From Nitriliruptorales bacterium (GTDB lineage: Bacteria > Actinomycetota > Nitriliruptoria > Euzebyales > JAHELV01): 64,000 nt of DNA. The DNA lies in contig JAHELV010000003.1 in NCBI GenBank assembly GCA_024644015.1, positions 44,166 to 108,165 on the forward strand, read 5' to 3'. Positions 6,666 to 63,397 of this stretch are shown here, in pieces. Positions within the stretch are counted from its first letter, which is position 1. Each line of letters starts with the position of its first letter. The notes beneath the pieces were generated by a model. It saw only the letters and a list, made by a program, of their open reading frames with translations, searched no databases and was not told the origin of the DNA. The position numbers and the translations under genes were made by a program.

Positions 6666-6671
6666 CAGCTG

Positions 6672-7793: not shown

Positions 7794-8144
7794 GACTTCC
7801 TCCGAAGGGGGTGGGTCGGGTAGCTACTTACCCGGCGGAGCCGGTCCGCGGAGTTGTACACATCGTGCCTGCTGCCCGACTGAAGAACGTGTTGGATATT
7901 CAAATCTGTCGTCGTCGTAGGGAAACCGCTGTTCTGTGGATATCCCCTGATCGCGCCAGCTCACCCCGGGTATTGCGGGTGTGCACGACGGGTGTACGGC
8001 GTGTTGATGACGCGTGGACAACATGGCGCTTGTCCCCATGACAGCGATGTGGTTCATTCCGACGGTGGACAACCCCCAGTTTTCCACATGCTGTCCCGCG
8101 CGTGGTGCACAGGCGGTCCACAGGTCTCGCATGACTGGTCCCGC
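7794..8144. other. Candidate oriC (dnaA-dnaN intergenic DnaA-box cluster with AT-rich patch)
   Basis: Six 9-mers match TTGTCCACA with one mismatch or fewer on either strand: 7854-7862 TTGTACACA, 7935-7943 (rc ATATCCACA), 8013-8021 (rc TTGTCCACG), 8030-8038 TTGTCCCCA, 8064-8072 (rc TTGTCCACC), 8080-8088 TTTTCCACA. The most AT-rich stretch, GGATATTCAAATCT at 7894-7907, is a possible unwinding element. Confidence 0.8.
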
Positions 8145-9530: not shown

Positions 9531-9615
9531 GATCCTCCCTGGTTATCTATGGCGATCTTGCGATCGCTATGGACAACCGGGCGGTTGTCCACATACATAT
9601 CCACAGCTGTGGACT
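9517..9615. promoter_or_regulatory. Second DnaA-box cluster at the dnaA 5' end and promoter region
   Basis: Boxes: 9585-9593 TTGTCCACA (perfect), 9597-9605 ATATCCACA, 9568-9576 (rc TTGTCCATA), 9517-9525 GTGTCCACA (inside dnaA codons 2-4), 9608-9615 (rc AGTCCACA). Confidence 0.6.
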
Positions 9616-10140
9616 CGTGCCACGAGCGATGGCCTCCACCGGCGCGCAGGACGCGTGATCTGGTCGTCGCCACACAGTTGCGCTAGGGAAGCGGTGCCGT
9701 TGGGTCGACCCGCCAGACAGTGACCCCGCCCATCCCGCGGCGAAGCCTTCTGAGCTCACTCGGTGACGATCGTGATCCAGGTCTGGCAGGCGACCGAACG
9801 CGGGGCAGGAGTATAGGTTCGTGTCGCGGTGAGCCGCAACAGCTTTCTTGGGGTGGTCGACATGCCCGACCGCTCACCCCACGCCGCGCGCGATCCGTGG
9901 TTGCGGGGGGTTCTTGCCGTTCTAGACTCGTAGTCACGCAATCGACATGGTCGTCGTTGCAACGGCTCCGTTGTCCTGCAGCGACCGGCGGAACCTCCAG
10001 TTGCCAGTGCACCGCGGCCGGCTCCGCTACGGGCGCGTACTTCGGACCCCGGTCCCGCTCGCCCACCAGAACACTCGGCCGCTGCGGCAGCACATCCTGG
10101 CCAGTTGACCGTTCGCTCCGGCGAGCACTCGAGGACGAGC

Positions 10141-10284: not shown

Positions 10285-10614
10285 GTGGCAGCCTTGTCGT
10301 CCCGGCAGGTCCGTGCAGTGCGATCGGCTCGGATCCGTTCGGCATCCCCGACGATGGTCGTGCACGCGCTGGCTCGCGATGACGGCGCCGGGACGACGCA
10401 GGTCGCGGTGGTGGCGAGCCGTGCCATCGGCGGCGCGGTGGTGCGCAACCGGGCCAAGCGTCGCCTGCGCGCGGCGGCCCGGCAGGCTCGGCTTCCGCAT
10501 GCCGTCGATCTGGTCATCGATGCGCGACCGGCGGTCGTGAGCGCTCCGTTCACCGCGTTGCATCGGGATCTCGAGCGGCTGAGCCGGCGGGCGGCGGAAC
10601 GGGCGGCGCGATGA
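10285..10614 (+). CDS. rnpA: Ribonuclease P protein component
   Basis: 109 aa, GTG start preceded by AGGGAAG. Basic protein with the [21 protein letters not shown] motif, positioned between rpmH and yidD. Confidence 0.85.
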
Positions 10615-10925
10615 CGGCTGACCACGAGAGCCCGACCGCGTCGGCACGTTGGAGCCCGCTGGCGAACCTGCTGGTGCTGCTCATGCGCGCGTGGCAGTTG
10701 GTGCCGCGCGTCGATCGGCAACGCTGCCGGTTCTATCCCAGCTGCTCGGCCTACGGGATCACGGCGGTGCAACGGTTCGGCGCGCTGCGCGGCGGTTGGC
10801 TCGCGCTGCGCAGGCTCGGACGATGCCACCCGTGGAACCCTGGCGGCATTGATCACGTGCCGTCTCGAGTCGGGCACACTCCTCGGCGCGGTGGCGCGAC
10901 GGCCACCACCAGCGAAGGTCTGTAG
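10611..10925 (+). CDS. yidD: Membrane protein insertion efficiency factor YidD
   Basis: [46 protein letters not shown] is the YidD signature. ATGA overlap with the rnpA stop. Carries a C-terminal extension. Confidence 0.85.
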
Positions 10926-11885
10926 ATGAGCATTTGGAACGGCCTGCTCCAGGGCCTCGGCGAGATCCTGCGGTTCTTCCACGACGTGACGGTCGGCTTG
11001 TTCGGCGACTACTCGTGGGCGGTGGCCATCGTGCTGCTGACCGTTGCTGTCCGGCTCGCGATGCTGCCGCTCGCCGTCAAGCAGTTCCGGTCGATGCAGG
11101 CGATGCAGAAGATCCGTCCGGAGATGAAGAAGATCCAGCAGAAGTACAAGACCGACCGCGGCATGATGCGGACCGATCCCGACAAGTACAAGGAGCGGCG
11201 CCAGAAGCAGCAGGAGGAGCTGATGGCGCTGTACAAGGTCCACGACGTGAATCCCGCGTCGAGCTGCCTGCCGCTGGTCGCGCAGATGCCGATCTTCGTC
11301 GCGCTGTTCAGCCTGCTCCGCAGCCCTGACGTCATTCCGGAGCTGGTGAGGGCCCCGTTCCCCATCAACGCCACGCTCCAGCAGGCTGCGAGCGAGGCCG
11401 GCATCGTCGCTCTCACGATGCTTCTGCTGATGGGCGTGACCACCTTCATCCAGCAGAAGCAGATGATGGGTCGGCAGGTCGCGATGGCCGACGATCAGCA
11501 GCTGCAGCAGCAGAAGCTGATGCTGTACATCATGCCGGTGTTCCTGGTGTTCCTGGGCTTCAATCTGCCCGTCGGCGTCCTGCTGTACTGGGTGACGACG
11601 AATGTGTGGCAGATGTCGCAGCAGTGGTTCATGCTGCGGGAGGTCGGCAGCGCTCCAACCAACGGTGGGCAGTCGAAGGGTTCATCACGATCGCCGGACT
11701 CGGGTGGCCCGTCGGCCCGCAGACAGCGCCCCGACCAGTCTCCCGGTCGCAAGCCGGACGGCGGCCGCAAACGTCGGGGCAAAGGCGGTTCTGACACCAA
11801 CGGCACCACCGGCAACGGGCATCGACCAGGTGGACCAGGTCGAATCAGTAAGAAACGCGACGAGACGAGGGACAAGCGGCGATGA
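10926..11885 (+). CDS. yidC: YidC/Oxa1-family membrane protein insertase
   Basis: 319 aa, starting immediately after the yidD stop. TM-rich core (LPLAVKQFRSMQAMQKIRPEMKKIQQKY..., PVGVLLYWVTTNVWQMSQQ) followed by a long basic Gly/Arg/Lys tail. Confidence 0.9.
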   Translation: MSIWNGLLQGLGEILRFFHDVTVGLFGDYSWAVAIVLLTVAVRLAMLPLAVKQFRSMQAMQKIRPEMKKIQQKYKTDRGMMRTDPDKYKERRQKQQEELMALYKVHDVNPASSCLPLVAQMPIFVALFSLLRSPDVIPELVRAPFPINATLQQAASEAGIVALTMLLLMGVTTFIQQKQMMGRQVAMADDQQLQQQKLMLYIMPVFLVFLGFNLPVGVLLYWVTTNVWQMSQQWFMLREVGSAPTNGGQSKGSSRSPDSGGPSARRQRPDQSPGRKPDGGRKRRGKGGSDTNGTTGNGHRPGGPGRISKKRDETRDKRR

Positions 11886-47484: not shown

Positions 47485-47547
47485 CGCCCGCCATGATACA
47501 CCGGAGATTTGGCATTGCACTGCGATGTATACGACGGTAAAGGTCTG

Positions 47548-48801
47548 ATGCGCCCTCGACAGGCGGTGCTGGGGCTCGTCAGCCGCACGGCGTCGTGGCC
47601 ACAACGGATCGCTGCATGGGTGTCGTCGGGCGCCGTTCAGGTCGCCGTGTCGTACTGCGAATCGGTCGCGCATCTCCAGGCACGACTGGGCGCGGACCGC
47701 GGAACGCAGGTGGTGCTGCTCGACGGCGATCTTTCCCTGGTCGACCGGGACCTGCTCACCGACATCGCCACGGGTGGCGGCGTGCCGGTAGTCGTCGAAG
47801 GCCGACGCCGGCGGAGGGACTGGGTCCGGTTGGGTGCTGCCGAGGTGCTCCCATCGGAGTTCGATCGAGCGCAACTGCTGCGGGCGGTGGGTTCGGTCAT
47901 GTCGCCCCGAGCGGCTGCGCCTCCGGAGCGTCGCGAGTCTGCCCTGTTCGCGGTCACCGGACCAGGCGGCACCGGTGCCAGCGTCACCGCCATCGCGCTC
48001 TCGCAGGGCCTCGCGGTCGAGCATCGACGCGTGCTGCTCGCGGACTGCTGCCTGCACGCCGAGCAGGCGATGCTGCACAACGCGCATGGTTCACAGCCAG
48101 GTCTCAGCGACGTCGTGGACCTCCACGCCGAGCGCACACCCGACCATCGCCAGATCCGGCGGTCCGCGCTGGGGATCGTCGAACGCGGCTACTACCTGCT
48201 ACCGGGGCTCCCCCGCGCGCGCCACTGGTCCCGCATCCGTGCCGGCTCGCTGCAGTCGGCCCTGCGGTCGTTGCGGACGGCATTCGACGTCGTGGTCGCC
48301 GACGTGGATCCCGAGGTCGAGGGAGAGGCCGAAGGCGGATCGATCGACGTCGAGGAGCGCAACGTGCTCGCGCGCACGGTTCTCACGGCGGCGGACGTGG
48401 TCCTCGTCGTGGGTCAGCCGACCATGAAGGGGATCTATGCGATGGTGCGGACGATGGTCGAGTTGCTGGAGTTCGGCATCCGACCCCAACGGCTGTTGCC
48501 CGTCGTCAACCAGTCCGCTGCGCCGCCAGCCGCCCGCGCGGAGCTCAGCCGCACGGTGCGGCAGCTGATCAACGGCGTTGCCGGCGGTCACGCCGTCGGC
48601 CCCGCGCTGTTCGCCCCGACGGTTGCGCTGGACGAGGCGCTGCGTGAGCGCGACGCGCTGCCAGGCACCTGGTCGGCGATGCTCGCCGGCGCGGCGACGA
48701 CGGTCCTTGGCCGGCGCGGAGCACAGGGCGCCACATCGGCGCTCACACCGATCGCCGCGGGGTCACTGGGGCATTGGGACGACGCGGACGACGAGCGGTG
48801 A
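47548..48801 (+). CDS. CpaE/Ssd-like ParA-superfamily protein with lysine-less P-loop
   Basis: LFAVTGPGGTGASVTAIALSQGLAV...VLLADCC replaces the GxxGxGK[ST] motif. A receiver-like N-terminal domain is present, with VVVADVDPE and VVLVVGQPTMKG segments. Start is ATG 47548 (AAAGG upstream) or TTG 47509. Confidence 0.7.
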   Translation: MRPRQAVLGLVSRTASWPQRIAAWVSSGAVQVAVSYCESVAHLQARLGADRGTQVVLLDGDLSLVDRDLLTDIATGGGVPVVVEGRRRRRDWVRLGAAEVLPSEFDRAQLLRAVGSVMSPRAAAPPERRESALFAVTGPGGTGASVTAIALSQGLAVEHRRVLLADCCLHAEQAMLHNAHGSQPGLSDVVDLHAERTPDHRQIRRSALGIVERGYYLLPGLPRARHWSRIRAGSLQSALRSLRTAFDVVVADVDPEVEGEAEGGSIDVEERNVLARTVLTAADVVLVVGQPTMKGIYAMVRTMVELLEFGIRPQRLLPVVNQSAAPPAARAELSRTVRQLINGVAGGHAVGPALFAPTVALDEALRERDALPGTWSAMLAGAATTVLGRRGAQGATSALTPIAAGSLGHWDDADDER

Positions 48802-49403
48802 CGGCCGCCATCGCCGCGCTCATGGTGGTGGCGGTCGTGAGCGGGTACGACCACCGACGGCGCCGGGCGGACGGGGCCGTCCGCTGGTGGCCCTGGTTGA
48901 TCGGTGTCATCGAGGACCGGGCCGTGCAGGGGTGGGATGACCTGCCGACCGTGACGGTCGGCGTCTGCCTGCACGGACCTCCACGTGTGCGCCGCGCGGC
49001 GCGGGCGGCCCTGCGTATCCAGCCCGGCGTCGATGCGCTGTCTCTGATCGGCGCGCTGCGTGATCGGGTGGCCAGCGCCCGTGGCGACCGGCTGTTCGGG
49101 ACGGTCGCTGCGGTCGCGGTGCGCGCGGCGTCACCTGATCGTCCGTTGGCACGCCTGCGTGCGCGCGAGCTCACGATCACGGCCGACGAGCGGGCCTGTG
49201 GGATGACGGCAGCGGCCGGCGTGCCGCCACGGTGGCTGCTGCTGGCGCCGCTCGCCCCGGTCGTCGGCGGGCAACTGTCCGGCCTCACCGCCTGGCTCGC
49301 TGCGGGTGCGGCGGTCAGCTCGTGGTGGTTCGCCGCGCGTTGGCTGCGCCCGCGGACGTGCGTGCGGGTGTTCGCCACGGAGCCGATCGGGCGCCCCAGG
49401 TGA
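48798..49403 (+). CDS. Possible TadB/T2SS-F-like small membrane protein
   Basis: GTGA overlap with the upstream gene. N-terminal TM AAIAALMVVAVVSG, a cytoplasmic helical region, then the C-terminal hydrophobic pair PPRWLLLAPLAPVVGGQLSGLTAWLAAGAAVSSWWF. Family call is tentative. Confidence 0.35.
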   Translation: MTAAIAALMVVAVVSGYDHRRRRADGAVRWWPWLIGVIEDRAVQGWDDLPTVTVGVCLHGPPRVRRAARAALRIQPGVDALSLIGALRDRVASARGDRLFGTVAAVAVRAASPDRPLARLRARELTITADERACGMTAAAGVPPRWLLLAPLAPVVGGQLSGLTAWLAAGAAVSSWWFAARWLRPRTCVRVFATEPIGRPR

Positions 49404-49942
49404 GCAGCGACCGGGGCGACGATCTCGCGGCGCGACTGCGACCGCACCTTCGCCAGCGCTTCGACGTGCCGGACGCTGTCTGGTGGTCCCCGCCCCACCG
49501 GTCGGGCGGTGCGCGGCACCCGATCGGCGACGCGGCGTCCCGCGCCGACCAGCTGGTACAGGTCGTCGAACGCCTTGCGCTCCTGGTCGAGCTCGGCGAC
49601 GGACTGGTTGCTGCGGTGACCGAGGTCTGCGAGAGGGGTCGCGGCCGGGTGGTGGCCGAGTTGGACGAAGTGTGCGAGGCGCTGGCGTCGGGGCAGGCGA
49701 CCGCGGACGCGTTCCAGGCGTGGGCACGCCGCGCAAGATGCGAGCACGTCGGCGTCCTGGCGGCCGACATCCGCCTGTGCGCGTCATCGGACGCACTGGC
49801 TGCGGCGCTGTGGCGCAACGCGGGGGTTCTTCGACGGGCTGCTCGCGACCGACGCATGCGCGAGCTGCGCCGGCGGATGCACCTGCTGTGGCTGCTGGCT
49901 GCAGCGGTCTGCGCCGGCTCCGTCGTGCTCGTGCTGCAGTGA
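49400..49942 (+). CDS. Possible TadC/T2SS-F-like small membrane protein
   Basis: GTGA overlap with the upstream gene. AFQAWARRARCEHVGVLAADIRLCASSDALAAALWRNAGVLRRAARDRRMRELRRRMHLLWLLAAAVCAGSVVLVL resembles the C-terminal half of actinobacterial TadB/C-like proteins. Tentative. Confidence 0.4.
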   Translation: MSSDRGDDLAARLRPHLRQRFDVPDAVWWSPPHRSGGARHPIGDAASRADQLVQVVERLALLVELGDGLVAAVTEVCERGRGRVVAELDEVCEALASGQATADAFQAWARRARCEHVGVLAADIRLCASSDALAAALWRNAGVLRRAARDRRMRELRRRMHLLWLLAAAVCAGSVVLVLQ

Positions 49943-51634: not shown

Positions 51635-52669
51635 TCAGGCGCCGTCGAACCCGACGAGCTCCACACCCGTGGTCGTGCCGATGATCCGTCCGCACACCCA
51701 CGCGTCCACGCCGCGGTCGCCCAGCATGTCGACGGCGGCCGCGCCGTCACCGACGACGGCGATCATCCCGGCTCCCATGTTGAAAGTCCGCCACATCTCC
51801 GCGGGCTCGACGGGGCCGCGCTCGGCGATCATCCGCATGATCGGCGGAATGGAGAACGTCGCGGTGTCAACCACCGCGCCGAGCCCGTCGGGGAGCACCC
51901 GAGGCAGGTTGCCCGGGACGCCCCCGCCGGTCACATGGCACAAGGCGTGCACATCGAGCTGGTTGCTCAGCGCCAGGCAGTCGCGAACGTAGATCCGGGT
52001 CGGTCGCAGCAGCGCGTCACCCAACGGCTCGGCCAGCCCGTGATCGGCGGCGAGGTCGAGATCCCCAACGACGTGGCGCGCCAGCGAGTAGCCGTTGCTG
52101 TGCAACCCGGTCGACGCCATCGCCACCAGGTCGTCGCCGTCGCGCACACGGTGCGGTCCGAGCAGGTCGTCGCGTTCGACGATGCCGACCCCGAAGCCGG
52201 CGATGTCGACGTGGGTGGGGGCCAGCACGCCTGGGTGCTCTGCTGTCTCGCCGCCGACGAGCGCGCAGCCCGCGATGACGCAGGCATCCGCGATGCCGGC
52301 GACGATGCGTTCGACCGCGGCGACGTCCAGCGCCCCCACGGCGATGTAGTCATTGAACACGAGCGGTTCTGCGCCGCAGACCACGAGATCGTCGACAACC
52401 ATCGCCACCAGGTCCTGGCCTACGGTGTCGTACTGCCCGAGCTGTCGCGCGACCTCCAGCTTGGTCCCGACGCCATCGCAGCTGGTAACCAGCAGCGGCT
52501 GCCGCCAGCGGTCCGTCTGCAGCGCGAACAGACCGCTGAACCCGCCGAACGCCCCGGTCACCTCGGGCCGCGTCGTGCGCGCCACGTGCGGGCGTATCGC
52601 CTCGACCGCGGCGTCGGCGGCGTCGAGTGAGACGCCGGCGGCGGCATAGGTCAGCGGGTCATGCCCCAT
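51635..52669 (-). CDS. purM: Phosphoribosylformylglycinamidine cyclo-ligase (AIR synthetase)
   Basis: Start is the ATG at 52669 (MGHDPLTYAAAGVSLDAADAAV). GGFSGLF, SCDGVGTKL. Overlaps the purF stop by 11 nt. Confidence 0.95.
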   Translation of the reverse strand: MGHDPLTYAAAGVSLDAADAAVEAIRPHVARTTRPEVTGAFGGFSGLFALQTDRWRQPLLVTSCDGVGTKLEVARQLGQYDTVGQDLVAMVVDDLVVCGAEPLVFNDYIAVGALDVAAVERIVAGIADACVIAGCALVGGETAEHPGVLAPTHVDIAGFGVGIVERDDLLGPHRVRDGDDLVAMASTGLHSNGYSLARHVVGDLDLAADHGLAEPLGDALLRPTRIYVRDCLALSNQLDVHALCHVTGGGVPGNLPRVLPDGLGAVVDTATFSIPPIMRMIAERGPVEPAEMWRTFNMGAGMIAVVGDGAAAVDMLGDRGVDAWVCGRIIGTTTGVELVGFDGA

Positions 52670-54241: not shown

Positions 54242-54751
54242 ATGGACATGTTGGAGCGGCGAATCCGGGATGCGGTCGCCACGCTGCTGTCCAGAGGCGC
54301 CAAGGCGTTGGAGCGTACGGCGAGCGACCTGGAGCAGGCGGCAAGCGAATTGCGCAGCGCCCAGCGGCGTTCGAGCGAGGCCGAGCGGGTCTGGGCCGAG
54401 CCGCGACAGGAGCCCGACACCATGATTCGCAGCGCGCCGCTGCGAGCGGTTCCCGACAGCCCGTCCGACGAGCGCGGGCCGACCGCCGAACGACCGGTGC
54501 CCCCGGTCAGGCCCGTCCAGCCGCGGGTCGACGCCGCGGTCGGCGGTGGTCCGCAGGCGCCTGATCTCGGCGCCGACGTCGAACCGGATGGCCTCCGGGA
54601 GCTGGCCACCGGCACCGTCAGCGAGATCCGCTCGCAGCTGGCCGATCTGTCCCCGTCGCAACTGCGCAGCCTGCGGCAGATCGAGACCGAGAACCGCAAC
54701 CGGGTGACCCTGCTCACCGCGATCGATCGCGCGCTCGACGCCGACCAGTAG
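54242..54751 (+). CDS. Hypothetical protein (coiled-coil N-terminus, Pro-rich linker, conserved-looking C-terminal helix pair)
   Basis: 169 aa: MDMLERRIRDAVATLLSRGAKALERTASDLEQAASELRSAQRR...LATGTVSEIRSQLADLSPSQLRSLRQIETENRNRVTLLTAIDRAL. Divergent from purF. Confidence 0.5.
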   Translation: MDMLERRIRDAVATLLSRGAKALERTASDLEQAASELRSAQRRSSEAERVWAEPRQEPDTMIRSAPLRAVPDSPSDERGPTAERPVPPVRPVQPRVDAAVGGGPQAPDLGADVEPDGLRELATGTVSEIRSQLADLSPSQLRSLRQIETENRNRVTLLTAIDRALDADQ

Positions 54752-54779: not shown

Positions 54780-55469
54780 TCACTCGTCGTCGCGGTCCAG
54801 CCCTCTGTGGATCGCATAACGCATGAGTTCGTAGCGCCCGCGCAGCTGAAGCTTCGCCAGGATGCTCTGGACGTGGTTCTGGACCGTACGCACGCTGATC
54901 ACGAGCCGGTCAGCGATCTCGCGGTAGGTGTAGCCTCGCGCGACGTGTCTGAGCACCTCGGTCTCGCGTTCGGTCAGGTCCTGCTCGCGGTCACCGCCCG
55001 AGGCAACCCGCCGGAACTCACCGAGCACCAGCGCCGCCAGTGATGGCGAGAACACCGGCTCGCCGGCCGCCACCTGCTGGACAGCGTCGACGAGTTCGTC
55101 GCCGGTGGCGCTCTTGAGCAGATAGCCGCTCGCCCCGGCTTTGACGGCTGCAAGCACGTCGGCCTCAGCCGCGGACGCGGACAGCACCAGCATGCGGGTG
55201 CCCGGTACCCGTTCGGCGATCCGCTGGATGGCGACCGTTCCCGGCAGGCCCGGCATGTTGAGGTCGATGAGCACCACATCGGGTCGCGCGCCCTCGACGA
55301 CCGTGATGGCCTCGTCGGCGCTCGCGGCCTCGCCGACCACGCGGCTGCGGCCGTCGGCTTCGAGATCGGCGCGCACTCCGTCGCGCCACATCGGGTGGTC
55401 GTCGACGACGACGACCTTCGTCGGTGGCCCGGTGCGCCTGGCGGCGCCCACGCGTTCGTCGTTGCTCAC
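54780..55469 (-). CDS. NarL/LuxR-family response regulator
   Basis: GTG 55469 overlaps the kinase stop (GTGA). REC motifs: VVVVDDHPMWRDG...VVLIDLNMPG...GYLLK. HTH: LTERETEVLRHVARGYTYREIADRLVISVRTVQNHV. Confidence 0.92.
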   Translation of the reverse strand: MSNDERVGAARRTGPPTKVVVVDDHPMWRDGVRADLEADGRSRVVGEAASADEAITVVEGARPDVVLIDLNMPGLPGTVAIQRIAERVPGTRMLVLSASAAEADVLAAVKAGASGYLLKSATGDELVDAVQQVAAGEPVFSPSLAALVLGEFRRVASGGDREQDLTERETEVLRHVARGYTYREIADRLVISVRTVQNHVQSILAKLQLRGRYELMRYAIHRGLDRDDE

Positions 55470-56752
55470 CCGTCGTCCTCCTGTCCGACCGGTGCCGGTA
55501 CCGGCACCCGCAGCTCGAGCTCCGTGCCGCGGCCCGGGGCGGTGTCGATCCGCAGGCGCCCACCCAGATCCTCGACCCTTCCGCCGATGCTGCGGAGCAG
55601 TCCGTACTTGCCGGCTGCGCGTAGTGCGGCCTCGTCGAAGTCGAACCCCGTTCCGTCGTCGCGGACGTCGACGACGACATCGTCCCCGTCGACCTCCGCA
55701 AAGACCCATGCGCGGCTCGCGTGGGCGTGGCGCACGACGTTCTGCAGCGCCTGGTCGACCGCGGCGCCGATCTCGTGGACGTGCCCGGCAGGCAGGCGGA
55801 TGTCACCGGTGCTGGTCACCGCCGCCGTGACGTGACCGTCCACAGCGGCGACCGCACGCTCCAGGCGCTCGCGCAGCGACGCGTGTCGCCCGTCGTCGCC
55901 GGTGACGTCCGGCGGACGCAGGATCATCGTGCGCAGCGCGCGCTCCTGAGCGGCCGCCAGATCCGCGAGACGGCCGACCTCCGCGCCGTCGACCTGCGCA
56001 CGGCCGGCAAGCTCCCTGCCACGTTTGTGCACCAACGCGAGCGCCTGCAGCACAGAATCGTGGATCTGGCGGCCCAGCGACTCGCGTTCGGTCATCCGGG
56101 CGGCGGCCTCCGTGGCGCGTACCTGCTCGGCCTGCGCGGCGCGTACCTGCGCAGCGGAGTTCTCCAGCAGCGTCGCGACGAACCCCATGCCGCCACCGGC
56201 GAGGGCGAAGTAGACGGGATCGCGTAGCACCTGCAGCGACTGCGCCGGGCCGTCCGTGGAGATCAGCGCGCCCGCGGAGACCGATATCAGACCGAGCACA
56301 CCGCCGGCGACGATGCCCCCGACGATGCCCCTGGTGGCTCCCCACGCCAGCGCCGCGGTCACCGGGTAGACGGTCGCCAGCCACCCGAACCGCGCGCCCA
56401 CGACGACCAGACCGCCGGCGACCAGGAGATCGGCCGTCAGCACGACCGGGGTGAACCGCGGCTGCGCGACGGTCAGCCAGCCGACCCACGCCGCCACCAC
56501 CGCCACGACGGTGACGGCCACGGCCAGATCTCTGCCCTCGACGACCCCGATCACCGCCAGGGCGAACATCCATGCCAGCACCGCCCAGCGCACGGCGAGC
56601 ACGCCGCGGGCAAGGGCCCGCACACCGCCTGTAGCCACGACCTCGGACCCGCCCGCCACCGGGGCCCGGTCGTCGTGGTGCGGGGCTGACGGGCTCACCG
56701 GACTCCCTGCCTGATCTCGTGCAGCGCGGCGGCAGGCGTCTGCGCCACGCAC
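55466..56752 (-). CDS. Sensor histidine kinase, HisKA_3 (NarX/DesK/LiaS-type) with multi-TM intramembrane sensor
   Basis: H-box RESLGRQIHDSVLQALA, N-box ALQNVVRHAHAS, G1 box VRDDGTGFD, and G2 box GLLRSIGGRVEDLGGRL. The N-terminal half consists of about 5-6 hydrophobic helices with very short loops. Start is 56752 or GTG 56698. Confidence 0.88.
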   Translation of the reverse strand: MRGADACRRAARDQAGSPVSPSAPHHDDRAPVAGGSEVVATGGVRALARGVLAVRWAVLAWMFALAVIGVVEGRDLAVAVTVVAVVAAWVGWLTVAQPRFTPVVLTADLLVAGGLVVVGARFGWLATVYPVTAALAWGATRGIVGGIVAGGVLGLISVSAGALISTDGPAQSLQVLRDPVYFALAGGGMGFVATLLENSAAQVRAAQAEQVRATEAAARMTERESLGRQIHDSVLQALALVHKRGRELAGRAQVDGAEVGRLADLAAAQERALRTMILRPPDVTGDDGRHASLRERLERAVAAVDGHVTAAVTSTGDIRLPAGHVHEIGAAVDQALQNVVRHAHASRAWVFAEVDGDDVVVDVRDDGTGFDFDEAALRAAGKYGLLRSIGGRVEDLGGRLRIDTAPGRGTELELRVPVPAPVGQEDDG

Positions 56753-56889
56753 TGCCGATCCTACTCACGACCGGGTTGCCGGATGTGCGTGCCCGAGTCG
56801 CGTCGCCGGTCACGGCACTGCAGGTGCAACCGCGGTGTCGCTGACGGGCCGCGTGCAACACGTTGGAACCACAGCCGAGGAGGACACCG

Positions 56890-58194
56890 ATGAACGTCCC
56901 AGCCCTGACCGCCGCTCCCGAGGCGCTGGCCGCTGCCACCCCGCCGGACCGCGACCGCTACCTGGATCTCCTTCGCGCACTGTCGATCGCCGCCGTCGTG
57001 TTCGGCCACTGGCTGGTCGCCGTCGTGTGGATCGGGGACGGGCAGCTACGCGCTGCCGCTGCGGTCGATCTGTCGCCGGCAACTCAGTGGGCGACCTGGA
57101 TCGTGCAGGTGATGCCGCTGTTCTTCCTGGTCGGCGGGGTCGTCAACGTGCGCTCCTGGCGTGCGACACGGCTCGCCGGCGGTGCCTACGCATCCTGGAT
57201 CGCCAGGCGAGCAGCCCGGCTGCTGCGGCCGACCACCGTGCTCGTATGGGTGTGGCTGGTGCTGGCACCGACCGCGCTCCTGGCAGGTGTCGATCGGGGG
57301 ATGATCCTGCTCGGCGCCCGGAGTGCGCTGGTGCCGCTGTGGTTCCTGGCGGTCTACCTGCTGATGATCGCACTCGTGCCGCCACTGCTCGGCCTGTACG
57401 AGCGTCTGGGCCTGTGGCTGCCCGCCGTCTGCATCGCGGGCGCGGCGACGGTCGACGCCGCCGTGGACGCGACGGTGCCGGCGATGGTCAACTATCTGCT
57501 GGTCTGGGCTGTGCCGACAACCCTCGGGTTCGCCTGGGCGGACGGACGGTTGGACCGGCGGTTCGTGCGGATCGGATTGCCGCTGGCGGGCCTCGCGGCG
57601 CTGATGGCGGCGGTCACGCTGGCCGGCTACCCGGTCAGCATGGTCGGTCTGGCCGAGGCGGGGACCGACGGCCCGAACGTGCCAGCCGTCACGCTGGCGC
57701 TCCTCGGCTGCGTGCAGACGGGGATCGCGAGCGCCGCGCGCACACCCGTGACGGCGTGGCTGCAGCGCCCCGGGACCTGGGCGTGGGTGGTGCGACTCAA
57801 CGCGGTGGCCATGACCGTCTACCTGTGGCACCTGACGGTGCTCGTGCTCGTGGTGGGAGGGTTGACCCTCACGGGATCGTGGTGGTCGATCACCCCTCTG
57901 TCCGTCGCGTGGTGGGCGACCAGGCCGCTGTGGCTGGCTGCGCTGGCGACGTGCCTCGCGCCGGTCGTCGTCGCGCTGTCGCCGATCGAGCACAGCGTCC
58001 CGGCGCCCCGCCCCCGCGGTCGCGGCTTCGCGGCGACCGCAGGCATGGTCGCGGTACCGCTGGCCGCCGCCGTCGCGATCGCTGCGCTGACACTCGGTGG
58101 GGTGCTCGGAGTGCCGGCGGTCGCGGGCACGATCCTGTTGACGGCCGCCGCCGTCCATGCCGGCGCCTTCGCGCCTCGGACGGTGACCCGATGA
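56890..58194 (+). CDS. Acyltransferase family 3 (AT3) integral membrane O-acyltransferase
   Basis: ATG 56890, with GAGGAGGA 5 nt upstream. RDRYLDLLRALSIAAVVFGHW (AT3 R..D..R / catalytic His), VMPLFFLVGG, and about 10 TM helices. Confidence 0.85.
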   Translation: MNVPALTAAPEALAAATPPDRDRYLDLLRALSIAAVVFGHWLVAVVWIGDGQLRAAAAVDLSPATQWATWIVQVMPLFFLVGGVVNVRSWRATRLAGGAYASWIARRAARLLRPTTVLVWVWLVLAPTALLAGVDRGMILLGARSALVPLWFLAVYLLMIALVPPLLGLYERLGLWLPAVCIAGAATVDAAVDATVPAMVNYLLVWAVPTTLGFAWADGRLDRRFVRIGLPLAGLAALMAAVTLAGYPVSMVGLAEAGTDGPNVPAVTLALLGCVQTGIASAARTPVTAWLQRPGTWAWVVRLNAVAMTVYLWHLTVLVLVVGGLTLTGSWWSITPLSVAWWATRPLWLAALATCLAPVVVALSPIEHSVPAPRPRGRGFAATAGMVAVPLAAAVAIAALTLGGVLGVPAVAGTILLTAAAVHAGAFAPRTVTR

Positions 58195-59204
58195 CCGACG
58201 CCTGGGTCGAGATCCTGCGGGCGGTTCGCCGGTACCCGTCGCCGCACAACAGCCAGCCGATCAAGCTCCGCATCGTCGACCGGCACTGTGCCGAGCTGTA
58301 CTACGACCTGGATCGCGGCCTGCCGGCGGAGCCGTACGGCATCCCCTTCGGCCACGTCTGCGCGGGCATCTTCGTCGAGCTGTTCGCGATCGCAGCGCAC
58401 GCGCGCGGCTTCGAGGTCGTAGAGCGGCTGCGCGCTGATGCGTTCGACTTCGATGGTGTCGACCGCCTCCACCTGCTCGGCACCTTGACCCTTGTGCCGG
58501 CGGCCGGCCCGGTGCCCGACCTGGATGCGGCCCTGATCGCCGAGCGGCGCACATCCCGGCTGCCGTATCAGCCGCGCACAGTCGACCCGACGGTGATCGA
58601 CGAGCTCGACGCCGAGGCCGGCCGGTGGGGCCATCGGGTGGCGACGACCACCGACGCCGGCCTGGTCGGCACCATCGTCGAGGTCAACCAGCGCACGTTG
58701 TTCGACGACCTGCGCAACCCGGCCGTGCGCCGCGAACTGGCGACGTGGCTGCGATACTCGCGTGACGAGGCGCAGCGCCGCGGGGACGGGCTGTCGGCCG
58801 AGTGCCTGCACCTCCCGGGCCGGGTGCTGCGTTGGTTCGTCGAACATCACCGCTGGTGGTCGCTGCCGGTCCTCGGCGCCCTCGCTCGCCGGCTGTATCG
58901 GCGGTCGATGCGTGGGGTCCGCCAGCTCGCATGGATCGTCGGCCCCTTCGACACCACCGAGGACTTCGTCCGTGCCGGCCGGGTGTTCATCCGCTGCTGG
59001 CTGCGGCTGACGGCGCACGGCGTGGCGCTGCAGCCGCTCGGCTCGGTCATCACCAACCCCGAGTCCCACGCCGCATTCACCGCGGCGGTGTCCGAGCGAT
59101 CCGACGGCATGGCGTGGATGCTCATGCGCGTCGGCTACAGCGCCGAACCTCCGCGCAGCCATCGGCTGCCAGCCGACGGGCTGCTGCTCGCGGAGGCCGG
59201 CTGA
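58191..59204 (+). CDS. Nitroreductase-superfamily flavoprotein, about 337 aa (Acg-like tandem-domain size)
   Basis: ATGA overlap with the AT3 stop. ILRAVRRYPSPHNSQPIKLRIV is the nitroreductase N-terminal motif. Length fits two-lobed Acg-type proteins. This is only the last 337 aa of the 789-aa track ORF. Confidence 0.68.
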   Translation: MTDAWVEILRAVRRYPSPHNSQPIKLRIVDRHCAELYYDLDRGLPAEPYGIPFGHVCAGIFVELFAIAAHARGFEVVERLRADAFDFDGVDRLHLLGTLTLVPAAGPVPDLDAALIAERRTSRLPYQPRTVDPTVIDELDAEAGRWGHRVATTTDAGLVGTIVEVNQRTLFDDLRNPAVRRELATWLRYSRDEAQRRGDGLSAECLHLPGRVLRWFVEHHRWWSLPVLGALARRLYRRSMRGVRQLAWIVGPFDTTEDFVRAGRVFIRCWLRLTAHGVALQPLGSVITNPESHAAFTAAVSERSDGMAWMLMRVGYSAEPPRSHRLPADGLLLAEAG

Positions 59205-60745
59205 TGGTCTGGACGATCCGCGTGCTGGCCACAGTCGCCGAGTCGGTCATCGGCCTGCTCATGCGCGGCCGACGCACCCGCGTGCTGCTGCTCGCGCCCG
59301 GCCTCGAGCGGGTCCGGTGGCGGGTGGGGCGCTGGCGCGCCCGTCGCGCCGCCGACCGCGCCAGGCGTCAAGTGCCGGCGTACACCCGGCACCTGGACGC
59401 GCGCGCCGGCGCGCCGGTCCGCCGCTTCGAGGACCTGCCGGAGACCGACAAGGCGTCCTACATCACGCCGAACCGCCTCGAGGCCCTCTGCCGCCACGGC
59501 CGTCTGCCGCGACGCGGGGTCGTGCTCGACGAGTCGTCCGGAAGCAGCGGCACTCCCACCAGTTGGGCGCGAGGTCCAGCGGAGCGTCGAGCGACGGCCC
59601 GGATGCTGCGATCGACGTTCGCCCGTGGCCTCCACGACGGCCCGGTGGTGGTCCTCAACGCCTTCTCGCTGGGTGCATGGGCCACCGGGCTGAACGTCAG
59701 CATGGCGCTGTCGTCGACGTGCAGGATCAAGTCCACGGGACCCGACCGCGACAAGATCATCCACACGCTGCGCGAGCTGGGGCCCGACTACAGGTACGTC
59801 GTCCTCGGCTACCCACCGTTCTTGAAGGACGTCGCGGACGACCCTCGGCTGGACCTGTCCCACTACGACGTGACCGCGGGGTTCGGCGGCGAGGGACTCA
59901 GCGAGAACATGCGGTCGTACCTGTTGCGCTCATACCGCCGGGTGAAGGGCTCCTACGGGGCATCGGACCTCGAGATCAACCTCGCGGCCGAGAGCGACTT
60001 CACGATAGCCCTGCGTCGCGAGCTGGCGGACAATGAACCGTTGCGCGCGGAGCTGCTGCGCCACGCCGGAGGGGTGCTGCCGATGGTGTTCCAGTTCAAC
60101 CCGCTGGACTACGTGATCGAGACGAACGCCGCGGGCGAACTGGTCGTCACGGTGTGCCGCGCCAGCAACCTGTCGCCCCGCATCCGGTACAACATCCACG
60201 ACGTCGGCCACGTCATGCGCATGCCGGCGCTCCGGCGGGTGCTGCGGCGGCACGGTGTTGCGCATCTGCTCGAGCAACCGGCACTGGATCTGCCCGTGCT
60301 GTTCCACTACGGCCGGTCCGACGCGTCGCTGGACTACTACGGAGCGGTCGTGACGCCAGACGGTCTGCGTGATGCGCTGTACGCCCAGCCGGAGCTGGCC
60401 GGTCGTATGCGCGAGTTCCGGCTGATCAGCTGGGAGGACGGCAGCGCCACCGCCCACCTGACGTTCGCGGTCGAGCTCCAGCCGGGACGCGAGCGCGACG
60501 GTCTGGACGAGGCGTCGCTCGGCGCCGCCGTCACGCGACATCTGGCCGGCTGCAACGCCGACTTCGCCAACGCCTGTCGGGTGGCCGCAGCGGGCGCCGA
60601 ACCGCGCCTCCGCCTGTTCGCGGCGGGCAGCGGGCCGTTCGGCGACGGCGCCGGGCTGAAGTACCGGTACGTCAGCCAGGTCGACGCGGCCGGTGCAGCG
60701 GCGCTCGGGCTCGGTGGCGTCGACGTGCGGCGTCGTGGGCGCTGA
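59204..60745 (+). CDS. Adenylate-forming enzyme of the PaaK/CapK/F390-synthetase-like family
   Basis: TGATG overlap with the upstream stop. LPETDKASYI, P-loop-like DESSGSSGTPTSW, FSLGAWATG, FGGEGLSENM, and GSYGASDLE. 513 aa, which is the last part of the 647-aa track ORF. Confidence 0.68.
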   Translation: MVWTIRVLATVAESVIGLLMRGRRTRVLLLAPGLERVRWRVGRWRARRAADRARRQVPAYTRHLDARAGAPVRRFEDLPETDKASYITPNRLEALCRHGRLPRRGVVLDESSGSSGTPTSWARGPAERRATARMLRSTFARGLHDGPVVVLNAFSLGAWATGLNVSMALSSTCRIKSTGPDRDKIIHTLRELGPDYRYVVLGYPPFLKDVADDPRLDLSHYDVTAGFGGEGLSENMRSYLLRSYRRVKGSYGASDLEINLAAESDFTIALRRELADNEPLRAELLRHAGGVLPMVFQFNPLDYVIETNAAGELVVTVCRASNLSPRIRYNIHDVGHVMRMPALRRVLRRHGVAHLLEQPALDLPVLFHYGRSDASLDYYGAVVTPDGLRDALYAQPELAGRMREFRLISWEDGSATAHLTFAVELQPGRERDGLDEASLGAAVTRHLAGCNADFANACRVAAAGAEPRLRLFAAGSGPFGDGAGLKYRYVSQVDAAGAAALGLGGVDVRRRGR

Positions 60746-60868
60746 CACCGTTGCCGGATGTACCTACCGCGATCAGGTAGCCACCGGCACACCAGATGGG
60801 TCGAAGTCCGCTGACGCCCGTCGGCGATGGGACCGACGATCACGTGACACCGATCAACAGGAGTCGCT

Positions 60869-63397
60869 GTGGACGCCGTGCGCTCGAGTGCTGACCAACG
60901 GGCACAGCGGTGCCCGTCGTGCTGGACGCCCCTGGGTGGGCCGCTGCCGCCGGCGTGCCCGGTCTGCCGGCTCCCCGTCGGCGGCGAACTGTGGCAGCGT
61001 GTGACAGCGCTCAACGCACGCATCGCCGAGCTGACCGCCGAACGGCGGGCGCTGCTGGCCCCGCCCGCGCCGCAGCGGGAACGGTCCGCGACACCGCACG
61101 CCAGCGACGGCGCCGGCGAGGTCGACCCGACGCCGGGCGTCGCGCTGTCACGTGGGCCGGACCGGCCGGGCGCTGTGCGTGCCTGGCTTGGCGCCGCGGG
61201 TCCGCAGACGCTGCTCGCGGCCGGTGGCGTGCTGCTGCTGGTGATCGCAGCCATCGTGTTCACCGCGGTCGCGTGGCGTGAGCTGCCACTGCTCCTGCGT
61301 GGCGGCCTGCTGCTGGCGGCATCGGCGGGCTGCGCCGCGCTGACCGGTTCGCTCACGCGTCGTGGTCTGCCCCGTACGGCCGAGGCGACCGGGGTGTTGT
61401 CGGTGGCCCTGCTCGCGGTGCTCGTCAACGGGCTGTGGCGCGGAGGCCTGCTCGACGGTGTCGGCGGCGGGCTCGTGGTGTTCGCGCTGACCGCCGTCAC
61501 GCTCGCCGCGGTCTCGCACCTGCTCGCCCGCGCGACGAACACCGGAGCACCGTTCGTGCTCGCCGCCTGGATGGCTCCCGCGGCGGCGGTCGCGGCCGGT
61601 GTGCGGGTCGCCGAGGCGCTCGCACCCCTGCGGATACCGGCGAGCGACCCCATCGCGGTGACCGCGGCGCTGCTCGCGGGCGCAGCCGTCGGGTGTGCGT
61701 ACGCGGAGCGCATGCTCGCCGGCCTGCCTGGATGGCGGCTTGGCACGCAGCTGGCCGGGGTGCTGCTGTGGCTGCTGTCGGTCGGCGGTCTTGTGCTGAC
61801 GTTGGCAGGCCTCGCTCCGAGCGTGCGGGAACAGCTGGGTCCGTTCGCCGCCGCCCTGGTTCTCGCCGCCGTCGGGGTCGGTGCGGCGGCGGGCGCGCGG
61901 CGCCTGGGTGGCGGTTCCCGCTGGTGGCGCATGGCAGGCGTGGCGGGCATGTGGTTCGCGGCGACGCTCGGCGCTGCCGGCGCGTTGTGGGAGCGCAGCG
62001 CGGCATGGCCCCAGCTGCAGGTCGTCGTCCCACTGGCGCTGGGCATCGCGGCGTTGTCGTGGTGCACGTCGCGGTCAGCCCGGCGCGGCGCGATCGTGGG
62101 GCTGCTGCCGATCACGCTCGCCGGGCTGACAGTTGTGGCCGACGCGGTCGAGGGCGTCCTCGAAGTGGCCGTGTGGCGGCTGGCCGCGCCGTGGACGGAC
62201 GTGCAGCGCGCCGCCCTGCTGGCCGTCGGCCCGTCGTCGCTGTTGTCCGCGTTCGCCGTCGTCGCCCTCGTCGTCGCGGTCGTCTGGCGGGTCGACCGCG
62301 TCGCCGCCACGGCGACAGCACTGGCCGGCGGCGGCATGGTCGGCGTCGCCGTCGGCGCGGCAGTCTGGCATGCCGGCGGGGGCTCGGTCGTCGCGCTCGG
62401 CATCGTTGCAGGCGCTGCCGTTGCCGTCCGACGCCACACGCCTGCGACGGTCCCGTTGCTGGCGGTCCTGAGCGCCACGGTCCTGGCGGTGACGCTCGCT
62501 CTGGCGACCGAGGCCCTGACGATCGCGACGCTGGCGATCGCTGCGGGGGTGACGCTGCCCGCCGTGGCGACCCGCGACCGCCGTGCGACGGTCGTCGCGC
62601 CCGCACTCGTGACGGCCGACGTGATCGGCCTGGTCGCTGCCGGCGTCGCTGCGGCGACGGCTGGTCCCGGGCCGGTCGGTGTGGCGATCGGTGTCGCAGC
62701 GGCTGGAGCGTGGATGGTCGCGTCGGCGACACGAGCCCGGCCTTCCGCCTCGACGGCGGTCGAAGGGACAGCGGCGGCCGCCTTCGGCATCGCGATCGGG
62801 CTCGCGGCGGCCGCCGACGCCGCGCCCTGGCTGGCGGTCACGCTGGGTCTGCTGGCGGTTGCGGCTGCTGGGGTAGCCGTCTGGCGGCCCGATCGACGGT
62901 GGATGCGATGGGTCGCCACCGCGGCAGCATCGGCGTCGTCGTGGACGGTGCTGTCGGATCTCGACATCGACCTCGTCGAGGCGTACACGGTGCCACCGGC
63001 GCTCGCGATCAGCGCACTGGGAGCGGCGTCGCTGCGCGCCCACCCGTCCGCATCGTCATGGCCGGTGCTGGGTACCGGCCTGAGCCTGCTGACGGTACCC
63101 ACGGTCGCGCAGCTCATGGCGGACCCCGGCGATCTGCGGCGCCTCGTCGTCACGGTCGTCGCGGGCTCGGTCCTGGCGGCCACCGGCCGTGCGCTGGGTC
63201 TCCAGTCACCGCTCGTGGCCGGTGTCGGCGCGCTGACGATGGCCGCGCTCTCCCAGCACGATGTCATCACGGATCTGCTGCCGCGCTGGGTGCTGCTCGC
63301 CGCCGCCGGCACCCTGCTGTTGTGGCTGTCGATCAGTTACGAACGCCAACGCGAGCGTGTCGCCGCGGCGACACGCCGGCTGGCGACGATGCGGTGA
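60869..63397 (+). CDS. Large polytopic membrane protein with N-terminal zinc-ribbon and coiled-coil (possibly SCO7613-C-terminal-domain type)
   Basis: 842 aa. GTG start with CAGGAG 5 nt upstream. CPSCWTPLGGPLPPACPVC, then LWQRVTALNARIAELTAERRALL, a Pro/Ala linker, then about 700 aa of near-continuous A/L/G/V-rich TM segments. Confidence 0.7.
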   Translation: MDAVRSSADQRAQRCPSCWTPLGGPLPPACPVCRLPVGGELWQRVTALNARIAELTAERRALLAPPAPQRERSATPHASDGAGEVDPTPGVALSRGPDRPGAVRAWLGAAGPQTLLAAGGVLLLVIAAIVFTAVAWRELPLLLRGGLLLAASAGCAALTGSLTRRGLPRTAEATGVLSVALLAVLVNGLWRGGLLDGVGGGLVVFALTAVTLAAVSHLLARATNTGAPFVLAAWMAPAAAVAAGVRVAEALAPLRIPASDPIAVTAALLAGAAVGCAYAERMLAGLPGWRLGTQLAGVLLWLLSVGGLVLTLAGLAPSVREQLGPFAAALVLAAVGVGAAAGARRLGGGSRWWRMAGVAGMWFAATLGAAGALWERSAAWPQLQVVVPLALGIAALSWCTSRSARRGAIVGLLPITLAGLTVVADAVEGVLEVAVWRLAAPWTDVQRAALLAVGPSSLLSAFAVVALVVAVVWRVDRVAATATALAGGGMVGVAVGAAVWHAGGGSVVALGIVAGAAVAVRRHTPATVPLLAVLSATVLAVTLALATEALTIATLAIAAGVTLPAVATRDRRATVVAPALVTADVIGLVAAGVAAATAGPGPVGVAIGVAAAGAWMVASATRARPSASTAVEGTAAAAFGIAIGLAAAADAAPWLAVTLGLLAVAAAGVAVWRPDRRWMRWVATAAASASSWTVLSDLDIDLVEAYTVPPALAISALGAASLRAHPSASSWPVLGTGLSLLTVPTVAQLMADPGDLRRLVVTVVAGSVLAATGRALGLQSPLVAGVGALTMAALSQHDVITDLLPRWVLLAAAGTLLLWLSISYERQRERVAAATRRLATMR

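Follow-up and report, generated by a model that had tools for sequence, protein, structure and literature searches.

An FDO-like nitroreductase-fold protein paired with a PaaK-fold ligase, and its place in a membrane-protein cassette between purF and purL of a Nitriliruptorales bacterium

Members of the FDO subgroup within the nitroreductase superfamily are monomers of about 340 amino acids with a lid near the active site (PMC10404671). TyzC, OxzB and TrzS are FDOs that desaturate N-acyl amino acids (PMC10404671; PMC12856293), and an FDO together with an N-acyltransferase and an adjacent or fused ThiF-type ATP-dependent cyclase produces acyl-oxazolones or N-acyl-dehydro amino acids (PMC10404671; PMC12856293; PMC12479983). 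The FDO-B branch, including Acg, Rv3127 and Rv3131, is without a known partner or reaction, and rv3131 and the acyltransferase gene tgs1 are divergently oriented (PMC10404671). The present analysis concerns a 64,000-nucleotide stretch of a Nitriliruptorales bacterium (contig JAHELV010000003.1), called the window below. Between its purF and purL genes lies a cassette of a two-component system (TCS), a membrane acyltransferase (AT3), a nitroreductase-fold protein (NR), a PaaK-fold ligase and a giant membrane protein. The NR-ligase pair is an FDO-PaaK-like combination that is undescribed and very widespread, being found in hundreds of bacteria. Its nearest known system is OxzAB/TyzABC/TrzAS, with the PaaK-like enzyme standing in for ThiF. 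Literature searches for the combination of NR and PaaK found nothing, and a PaaK-like partner of an FDO is not mentioned in PMC10404671, PMC12856293 or PMC12479983.

Loci were sampled by the ligase family and included 80 loci from species-representative genomes (of 320 stretches), 80 metagenome loci (of more than 443) and additionally locus L004. The NR gene adjoined the ligase gene on the same strand in 154 of the 161 loci (window excluded), upstream in 151 and downstream in three. In six of the remaining seven loci the contig ended at the ligase gene, and only L065 was without NR, leaving 154 of 155 informative loci with the pair. In the 77 genome loci examined for the junction, the two genes overlapped in 70 cases (58 of them by 4 bp) and were at most 2 nt apart in five more. 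The inverted order, ligase followed by NR, was present in metagenome loci L101, L111 and L112, and it is also the order of the ligase-NR fusion proteins P0438 and P0479, which represent independent clusters. The P0438 fusion matched both the PaaK and the Acg family of NCBIfam. An apparent 883-aa NR-ligase fusion in L062 (Actinomycetospora lemnae) was discarded, as a frameshift inside the NR part marks it as an artefact or a pseudogene.

All-against-all clustering of the neighboring genes did not reveal any conserved third gene, only synteny at the level of genus or lineage. The 87 non-redundant flanking gene families matched 119 Pfam families, none of these in more than two, examples being helicases, Rho, aconitase, Hsp70 and H+-PPase. 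In more than 145 of the 155 informative loci the pair stood without other cassette members among unrelated housekeeping genes, and the carriers belonged to Actinomycetota, Patescibacteria (Saccharimonadales, Gottesmanbacteria, Peribacteria), Alphaproteobacteria and Gemmatimonadota. Since the adjacency of NR and ligase is nearly universal and no neighbor is constant, the conserved unit is a two-gene module and not the triad of AT3, NR and ligase that the original prediction had treated as a unit.

The neighborhoods also bear on a system of the type that makes ribosomally synthesized and post-translationally modified peptides (azole- or TOMM-like), where a precursor peptide would be modified by an adenylating enzyme together with a nitroreductase-fold dehydrogenase. 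TOMM synthetases pair an E1-like protein with a nitroreductase-fold dehydrogenase, and the NR protein did match the ThiF-nitroreductase fusion families PRK07877 and PRK14851. However, no YcaO gene was present, no small open reading frame (ORF) was conserved, many loci had no room for one (flanking gaps were often below 100 nt) and no neighbor of any kind was conserved. This explanation was regarded as the most improbable of those considered.

Two loci had layouts of their own. In the Curtobacterium locus L004 (4340-8878) a 4'-phosphopantetheinyl transferase gene, a 95-aa ORF, an acyl-CoA dehydrogenase-like gene and a gene for an 847-aa hydrolase run divergently from the pair, a layout kept in about 13 Curtobacterium loci and not elsewhere. 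L172 (Nonomuraea gerenzanensis, 5785-9765) has a distantly related version of the operon: a PaaK-like ligase, a 131-aa protein (a weak af470-like monooxygenase match), a 355-aa protein without a family match and an Acg-family FDO are encoded on one strand, the last two junctions being 4-bp overlaps.

The best profile and fold match of the NR protein was the Acg family (Acg/Rv2032, Rv3127, Rv3131; structure 2YMV; the DosR-regulon 'nitroreductases'). The NCBIfam model of this family, NF047509, aligned end to end (residues 9-329 to positions 3-316 of 319) with 155.4 bits against a cut-off of 199, and the NR protein is therefore a relative of the family and not a member. The Pfam nitroreductase model matched below threshold only, and the match to the nitroreductase/FDO part of the Rv1355c family in NCBIfam (1e-11) was weaker than that to Acg. 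The NR profile found MsAcg 2YMV in the PDB at 2e-6. The AlphaFold model (pLDDT 88) matched the same structure over its full length in Foldseek (E 1.8e-14, TM-score 0.74/0.76), at a sequence identity of 21%. The protein has the shape of the FDO subgroup (Grigg et al. 2023), a double nitroreductase fold in a single chain with a lid-like helical insertion at about residues 156-240. Within its motifs YPSPHNSQP and RRTSR, PSxHNxQP and RRTxR are shared and aligned with 2YMV, and about 60 residues were invariant across phyla. In contrast to the Acg family, the NR protein has a fixed PaaK-like partner, whereas the FDO-B genes of Mycobacterium tuberculosis are without a described adenylating partner (PMC10404671). 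NR is thus a predicted FDO-like (Acg-like) monomeric flavoprotein that would, by analogy with TyzC, OxzB and TrzS, carry out a flavin-dependent oxidation.

Alternatively, NR could sequester or store flavin instead of acting as an enzyme, the ligase then having an unrelated substrate; such a role has reportedly been raised for Acg. Storage would suit the large helical insertion that covers the flavin site and the closeness of the fold to MsAcg, and also the lid near the active site of FDO/Acg proteins (PMC10404671). The extent of the invariant residues and the strict coupling or fusion to an ATP-dependent enzyme nevertheless favor catalysis in a shared pathway, and the characterized FDOs TyzC, OxzB and TrzS are desaturases, and storage was judged very improbable.

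The single ligase sequence had no match in Pfam, NCBIfam or a PDB sequence search. The profile of its family, however, found PaaK structures at 4e-6, and in the alignment with 4R1L and 2Y4O the segments SSGSSGTPT, YGASD, IRYNIHD and YGRSD correspond to the P-loop, A5, A7 and A8, respectively, the first aligning with SSGTTGxPT of the known enzymes. These motifs (the P-loop and the YGxxE-, YRxxD- and GRSD-type motifs) were invariant in 47 family sequences. The AlphaFold model (pLDDT 86) matched PaaK1/PaaK2 (2Y27/2Y4O) in Foldseek with E-values of 5e-21 to 1e-19, followed by BT_0428, NatL2/AjiA1 and the 2-hydroxyisobutyryl-CoA ligase (HCL). The two-domain fold and the core motifs thus place the protein in the ANL/PaaK-fold superfamily, together with these AMP ligases and coenzyme F390 synthetase. 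It differs from them in its identity of only 16-21%, in an additional length of about 80 aa, which includes a helical extension at the N-terminus, and in lacking any Pfam AMP-binding or LuxE match. PaaK proper (TIGR02155, cut-off 646 bits) was not matched by the window ligase at E ≤ 0.1 and its distant relatives reached about 28-32 bits. No paa genes, and thus no paa catabolic context, were found nearby among the called and Pfam-scanned genes.

The ligase family included 692 clusters (50% identity) at E ≤ 1e-30 and has neither a Pfam nor an NCBIfam model. The published neighborhood analysis of FDOs was drawn with Pfam families, and the missing Pfam model may explain why such analyses left the NR-PaaK association unreported. 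The labels given to the ligase by the sources, 'phenylacetate-CoA ligase family' and 'CoF (F390) synthetase', reflect homology only.

Some ligase relatives carry additional N-terminal parts. In P0478, a divergent relative, the extension matched Pfam Acyl_transf_2 and NCBIfam LuxD, and in P0447 and P0464 extensions of about 500 aa had no family match and looked alpha/beta hydrolase-like on inspection. The sequences of these three extensions hint at fatty-acyl substrates in that branch of the ligases. Extensions of about 150-210 aa of no assigned family were present in P0406, P0410, P0428, P0442 and P0469.

The features of the locus in the window are the following:

51635-52669, minus strand: purM (Pfam)
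52659 to about 54101, minus strand: purF (Pfam)
54242-54751, plus strand: ORF of 169 aa, conserved hypothetical (coding-potential call and exact database gene call)
54780-55469, minus strand: NarL-type response regulator (RR), 229 aa (Pfam Response_reg 2e-24 and GerE 4e-16)
55466-56698 (longest ORF to 56752), minus strand: MacS-like histidine kinase (HK), 410 aa (Pfam HATPase_c; NCBIfam)
56753-56769, in the divergent spacer: conserved 17-nt block TGCCGATCCTACTCACG (clade alignment)
56890-58194, plus strand: AT3 acyltransferase, 434 aa (Pfam Acyl_transf_3, 2.2e-26, 93 bits)
58191-59204, plus strand: NR-like double nitroreductase-fold protein, 337 aa (NCBIfam, profile, Foldseek)
59204-60745, plus strand: PaaK-fold ligase, 513 aa (family profile, Foldseek)
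60869-63397, plus strand: giant polytopic membrane protein, 842 aa (NCBIfam NF047321)
63440 to beyond 64000, minus strand: 3' end of purL (Pfam)

The G+C content of the window is about 72%. Genes were called with a codon-position GC and codon-usage caller trained on the locus; GC3 frame statistics backed every call, and all cassette proteins had exactly matching boundaries among the called genes of the public collection. The distance between purF and purL is about 9.3 kb, and the junctions GTGA (55466-55469, HK/RR), ATGA (58191-58194, AT3/NR) and TGATG (59202-59206, NR/ligase) are present in the sequence. The original prediction had described six genes with these overlaps, the motifs RDRYLDLLRALSIAAVVFGHW, YPSPHNSQP and SSGSSGTP, and purM, purF and purL on the minus strand, all of which was borne out by the sequence, Pfam and the public gene calls. 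Also its family assignments were upheld: AT3 by the Pfam Acyl_transf_3 model, the nitroreductase/Acg-like protein by the fold match to MsAcg and the PaaK/CapK-like ligase by the match of its predicted structure to PaaK1/2.

The 169-aa ORF had no match in Pfam or NCBIfam. Homologues with 59-65% identity were present at the same position in L008, L087, L165 and L168, and the ORF, conserved between purF and the RR gene and absent from the original prediction, is part of the conserved locus. Rfam detected neither a riboswitch nor a leader RNA in the window and in seven further loci where the gap upstream of the pair is long. The PADLOC anti-phage models did not match AT3, NR, the ligase or the giant protein, and RR gave only generic helix-turn-helix and receiver matches; an anti-phage reading was dropped as there was nothing for the four non-TCS proteins. 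Carriage by a mobile element was dropped as well, as there was no phage match and the 'plasmid' matches were only to a megaplasmid and a chromosome-sized record. Elsewhere in the window, three successive genes (47509-49942, plus strand) precede a gene for a Glu/Leu/Phe/Val dehydrogenase; they encode, among others, an AAA_31/CbiA-like ATPase and a membrane protein of the T2SSF-like type, and may be a remnant of a Tad/pilus-type assembly.

Relatives with a ligase 71-74% identical to that of the window (L005, L008, L085, L086, L087) keep the order AT3-NR-ligase wherever the contig allows. The junctions overlap in the window, L005 and L008, and in L086 and L087 AT3 is directly before NR with junctions within a few bases. 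The order in L087 is purM-purF-ORF-...-RR-HK/AT3-NR-ligase; L008 has the same order from purF, within which its contig starts, and purL was reached in L005 and L008. L165, a metagenome-assembled genome of Euzebyales, and L168 are relatives of equal closeness and show a different arrangement, purM-purF-ORF-RR-HK/AT3-giant-purL without NR and ligase. In L165, AT3 is 64% and RR 82% identical to the window proteins and there is a 4-bp overlap between AT3 and the giant gene, and in L168 the identity of AT3 is 66%. As the TCS, AT3 and the giant protein persist in these two loci, from which the pair is missing, the cassette is composite and not one fixed pathway: it is a backbone of TCS, AT3 and giant protein in which the NR-ligase pair is optionally placed.

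The interval contained further, differing genes. In L087 (9823-19320) the ligase is followed by a RimJ-type GNAT gene, which overlaps its stop codon, and by genes for a HAD-like protein, a PAS-GGDEF-EAL protein and a sulfotransferase, and the same interval includes a 1028-aa A-T-R (carboxylic-acid-reductase-like) protein and, by inspection, a short-chain dehydrogenase-like gene. In L008 a sulfotransferase lies between the ligase and the giant protein (10543-11289), and DoxX was also among the interval genes of L008/L087. The purL-purF gap had been proposed as a variable locus, and its content indeed differed among the relatives compared (L008, L087, L165, L168).

Outside the window's clade, AT3 was coupled to the pair only in L173 (record Jannaschia sp. 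R86511) and in another gene order, RR-HK/NR-ligase-AT3. The L173 AT3 shares 38% identity with that of the window, and its gene has a 4-bp overlap with the end of the ligase gene. In Devosia L084 an unrelated AT3 lies 116 bp upstream of the pair, in Sphingomonas L057 an Aas-like MFS-PlsC-AMP-binding acyltransferase overlaps NR, and L175 has neither TCS nor AT3.

These arrangements bear on two further explanations. According to the first, the cassette is a single linear pathway in which the ligase turns an unusual acid into its acyl-AMP or acyl-CoA, NR tailors it by redox chemistry and AT3 transfers it to an extracytoplasmic glycan, assisted by the giant protein and controlled by the TCS. The stop/start overlaps of AT3, NR and ligase in the window, L005 and L008 would fit this, as would the second order with its 4-bp overlap in L173, the unrelated AT3 or Aas-like acyltransferase adjoining the pair in L084 and L057, and the resemblance of the TCS to envelope-stress/membrane-protein regulators (PMC9739842). 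Yet more than 145 loci have the pair but no acyltransferase, L165 and L168 have AT3 and the giant protein but no pair, the two pair-linked AT3s share only 38% identity and the cassette has no glycan-synthesis genes, and a linear pathway was held to be unlikely. Of the regulated acyl pathway suggested in the original prediction, the family assignments, the TCS neighborhood and the AT3 coupling in two orders stood, and the triad as one fixed pathway did not.

According to the second, the pair is a self-contained cytoplasmic module (cofactor or flavin nucleotidylation, detoxification, or stress/dormancy) that happened to enter a variable locus and is co-transcribed with the membrane module only by chance. 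This was considered marginally less unlikely than the linear pathway. The pair is autonomous with heterogeneous neighbors and present in reduced Patescibacteria genomes, it is absent in the otherwise syntenic L165 and L168, the purF-purL content varies in L008 and L087, and the ligase is named 'CoF (F390) synthetase' by the sources. That name, however, is a legacy homology label and not evidence, and an orthologous TCS stands beside the pair in at least five lineages, AT3 coupling occurs in two gene orders and the 4-bp overlaps are kept across the clade.

The AT3 protein matched Pfam PF01757 with 93.1 bits against a cut-off of 31, residues 23-358 spanning positions 2-320 of the 326 in the profile. 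It has about 11 transmembrane helices (11 hydropathy peaks) and no SGNH domain, and RDRYLDLLRALSIAAVVFGHW is present near its N-terminus, corresponding to an Arg/His motif in the first helix (R...D..R...H), the putative catalytic motif. The gene is preceded by the ribosome-binding site GAGGAGG, and its stop overlaps the NR start (ATGA). The orthologues in the window's clade were 63-75% identical, and more distant homologues (47-56%) stood in unrelated contexts. The protein resembles the OafA/Oac-type AT3 glycan acetylases in its domain score well above the cut-off, its multiple transmembrane helices and its N-terminal motif. It differs from them in having no SGNH domain and no glycan-synthesis genes nearby. 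Further differences are the coupling of AT3 to a giant protein of the SCO7613 type in relatives and the fusion of some homologues to phospholipase A2. Such fusions, combining an AT3 homologue 44-45% identical with a phospholipase A2 domain (PF09056) and DUF4383, were P0349, P0357 and P0366, and in P0282 an AT3 homologue is fused to GNAT domains.

The giant protein has an N-terminal CxxC...CxxC zinc ribbon and about 21 predicted transmembrane helices (hydropathy peaks). Its C-terminus (residues 655-842) matched NCBIfam NF047321, the C-terminal domain of SCO7613 of Streptomyces coelicolor, with 138.4 bits against a cut-off of 45, and the same domain was present in the giant homologues of L008 and L168. 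In L008, L085 and L086 the homologue comes after the ligase, in L165 and L168 directly after AT3. SCO7613 has been published as a putative polyhydroxyalkanoate synthase on the grounds of a partial phenotype and a GASAG sequence resembling a lipase box (PMC8313934). A synthase role for the giant protein on this basis was set aside, as the published evidence is weak and offers no mechanism.

The HK protein has four to five N-terminal transmembrane helices with short loops between them (hydropathy). It matched the NCBIfam MacS family NF047322 along its whole length (45-417 to 4-367 of 367) with 192.7 bits, below the equivalog cut-off of 300, and it is thus a relative of MacS and not an orthologue; the LiaS, MctS and MadS models matched more weakly. 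The original prediction of a HisKA_3 kinase with a NarL-type regulator held for the regulator, recognized by Pfam, but not for the HisKA_3 label, which Pfam did not report at E ≤ 0.1; the kinase class comes from the MacS/LiaS-type NCBIfam models. With MacRS of S. coelicolor (SCO2121/SCO2120), the window TCS shares the end-to-end match to the MacS model and a NarL-type RR. The targets of MacR are membrane-protein and lipoprotein genes (PMC9739842), and the divergent operon of the window likewise encodes membrane proteins. The difference is the score below the equivalog cut-off, and control of the divergent operon by the window TCS is a prediction.

The link between the TCS and the other genes recurred. 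RR orthologues 67-85% identical adjoin the NR-ligase pair or AT3-giant in L006, L008, L086, L087, L123, L165, L173 and L174. The TCS orthologues are divergent from NR-ligase without AT3 in L006, L123 and L174 and with AT3 downstream in L173, and in these four loci the identity to the window proteins was 67-68% for RR and about 50% for HK. With the window's clade included, the regulatory neighborhood is conserved, as had been proposed. Separately, in L170 (6814-10332) an AT3 homologue (50% identical) is divergent from an orphan MASE9-HisKA_3 histidine kinase, and pairing of AT3 with a kinase may thus recur beyond the window's clade.

The spacer between HK and AT3 had been given as 137 bp. The database start of HK is GTG 56698 with GGGAG ahead of it, which makes the spacer 191 bp. 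Its 17-nt block has the clade consensus TGCCGATC[C/G]TACTCACG, 16 of the 17 columns being invariant among the window, L008, L086 and L087, while the remaining spacer is about 50% identical. On the minus strand, the block includes TAGGAT 5 nt before the longest-ORF GTG of HK, upstream of the start led by the ribosome-binding site. Because of this position just upstream of HK, the block is a candidate -10 element of the HK promoter and/or an operator. A sigma-70 promoter consensus scan found nothing, as expected at 72% GC, and a terminator consensus scan was likewise uninformative. The MacRS paper is said to give a palindromic MacR consensus, and the block is not claimed to be a MacR-type site.

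Our preferred reading, to which we give somewhat less than an even chance, is that NR oxidizes or desaturates an acyl metabolite bearing a carboxylate, the ligase adenylates the carboxylate of the same molecule, and the cassette is under the control of an envelope-sensing TCS. By analogy with TyzC, OxzB and TrzS, the NR-type flavoprotein would perform a flavin-dependent alpha,beta-desaturation. Adenylation of the carboxylate by the ligase would lead to cyclization or to ligation to a thiol, amine or hydroxyl acceptor. The chemical logic would be that of the FDO plus ThiF oxazolone synthetases, with a non-homologous ANL enzyme replacing ThiF. In the window's clade, where the pair would be co-transcribed with AT3, the product of the pair may be or feed the acyl donor moved by AT3 to the envelope. 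The intramembrane-sensing TCS (MacS-like HK and RR) would control the divergent operon, in which two separable modules, the membrane module of AT3 and giant protein and the enzyme pair of NR and ligase, are joined. As the pair stands beside AT3 and the giant protein and divergent from the TCS, its product may serve an envelope function in this clade. The analysis shows the gene structures and folds, the obligate pairing with its fusions, the distribution, the separable modules and the recurring TCS link. We infer from these the flavin chemistry, the adenylation of the same substrate, the regulation by the TCS and any later step that AT3 or the giant protein would take on the product of the pair; transfer of the acyl group onto an envelope polymer is pure conjecture.

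Several points weigh against this reading. NR scored below the Acg cut-off, and its nearest relatives in FDO-B (Acg, Rv3131) are without a demonstrated reaction. Neither an N-acyl amino acid synthase gene nor a consistent lipid gene accompanied the pair among the flanking genes of the loci, and the oxazolone analogy is therefore one of logic only. Most loci were without an acyltransferase and without a TCS nearby, and since close relatives have AT3 but not the pair, the step catalyzed by AT3 may have nothing to do with it. The usual donors of AT3 enzymes are simple acyl-CoAs. The presence of the pair in the reduced genomes of Patescibacteria argues for a self-contained function that does not require envelope acylation. 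The PaaK family also includes nucleotidyl transferases to non-carboxylate acceptors (F390 synthetase), so that adenylation of a carboxylate by the ligase is likely and not proven.

In a wider sense, the pair could be an unrecognized, broad two-enzyme system that makes a new class of desaturated, carboxyl-activated acyl metabolites, an ANL counterpart of the oxazolone synthetases, the product of which would in Euzebyales-like bacteria be deposited in the envelope by AT3 on command of the TCS. This extension, likewise drawn by analogy, is tentative and rather doubtful. Acg, Rv3127 and Rv3131, which are dormancy proteins in M. tuberculosis, are of the FDO type, and the characterized FDOs are all partnered by ThiF and make acyl-oxazolone lipids. 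If true, the reading would offer, through the partner enzyme, a first clue to the reactions catalyzed in the Acg/Rv3131 branch of the dormancy-associated 'nitroreductases'. A second, far more widespread FDO branch is obligately linked or even fused to a PaaK-fold ligase, which suggests flavin desaturase plus carboxylate activation as a general two-enzyme design. The pair is a compact two-gene module with several culturable carriers, and in this genome a mobile enzyme pair appears wired into a TCS-controlled operon of membrane proteins.

The original prediction knew of no characterized system with this gene combination. The combination itself is unreported, but a system of the same logic, acyltransferase plus FDO plus adenylating enzyme, has been characterized in OxzAB/TyzABC/TrzAS. 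Common to both is an FDO-type monomeric protein of about 340 aa that is always paired with or fused to an ATP-dependent carboxylate-adenylating enzyme, the adenylation being predicted in the case of the window. The fusions share the order in which the adenylating enzyme is N-terminal and the FDO C-terminal, and in some lineages an acyltransferase belongs to the same operon. The systems differ in the partner, which in the window is a PaaK-fold ANL enzyme and not ThiF/E1, and in the acyltransferase, which is a polytopic AT3 and not a soluble N-acyl amino acid synthase of the acyl-homoserine-lactone-synthase-like or GNAT type. The window FDO is also nearer to Acg/Rv3131 (FDO-B) than to the ThiF-associated FDO-A (155 vs 44 bits). 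Clustering and the Pfam census of the flanks found no ThiF among the genes neighboring the pair, and no N-acyl amino acid synthase of the OxzA/TyzA/NasY type was found in the window or among the flanking genes. The acyltransferases seen near the pair were AT3 (window clade, L173, L084), the Aas-like protein (L057) and the RimJ-type GNAT (L087). Having neither ThiF nor an N-acyl amino acid synthase, the window pair does not belong to the oxazolone systems. With respect to these systems, as to PaaK proper, the Acg family and the MacS equivalog, the window proteins are relatives or analogues and not members.

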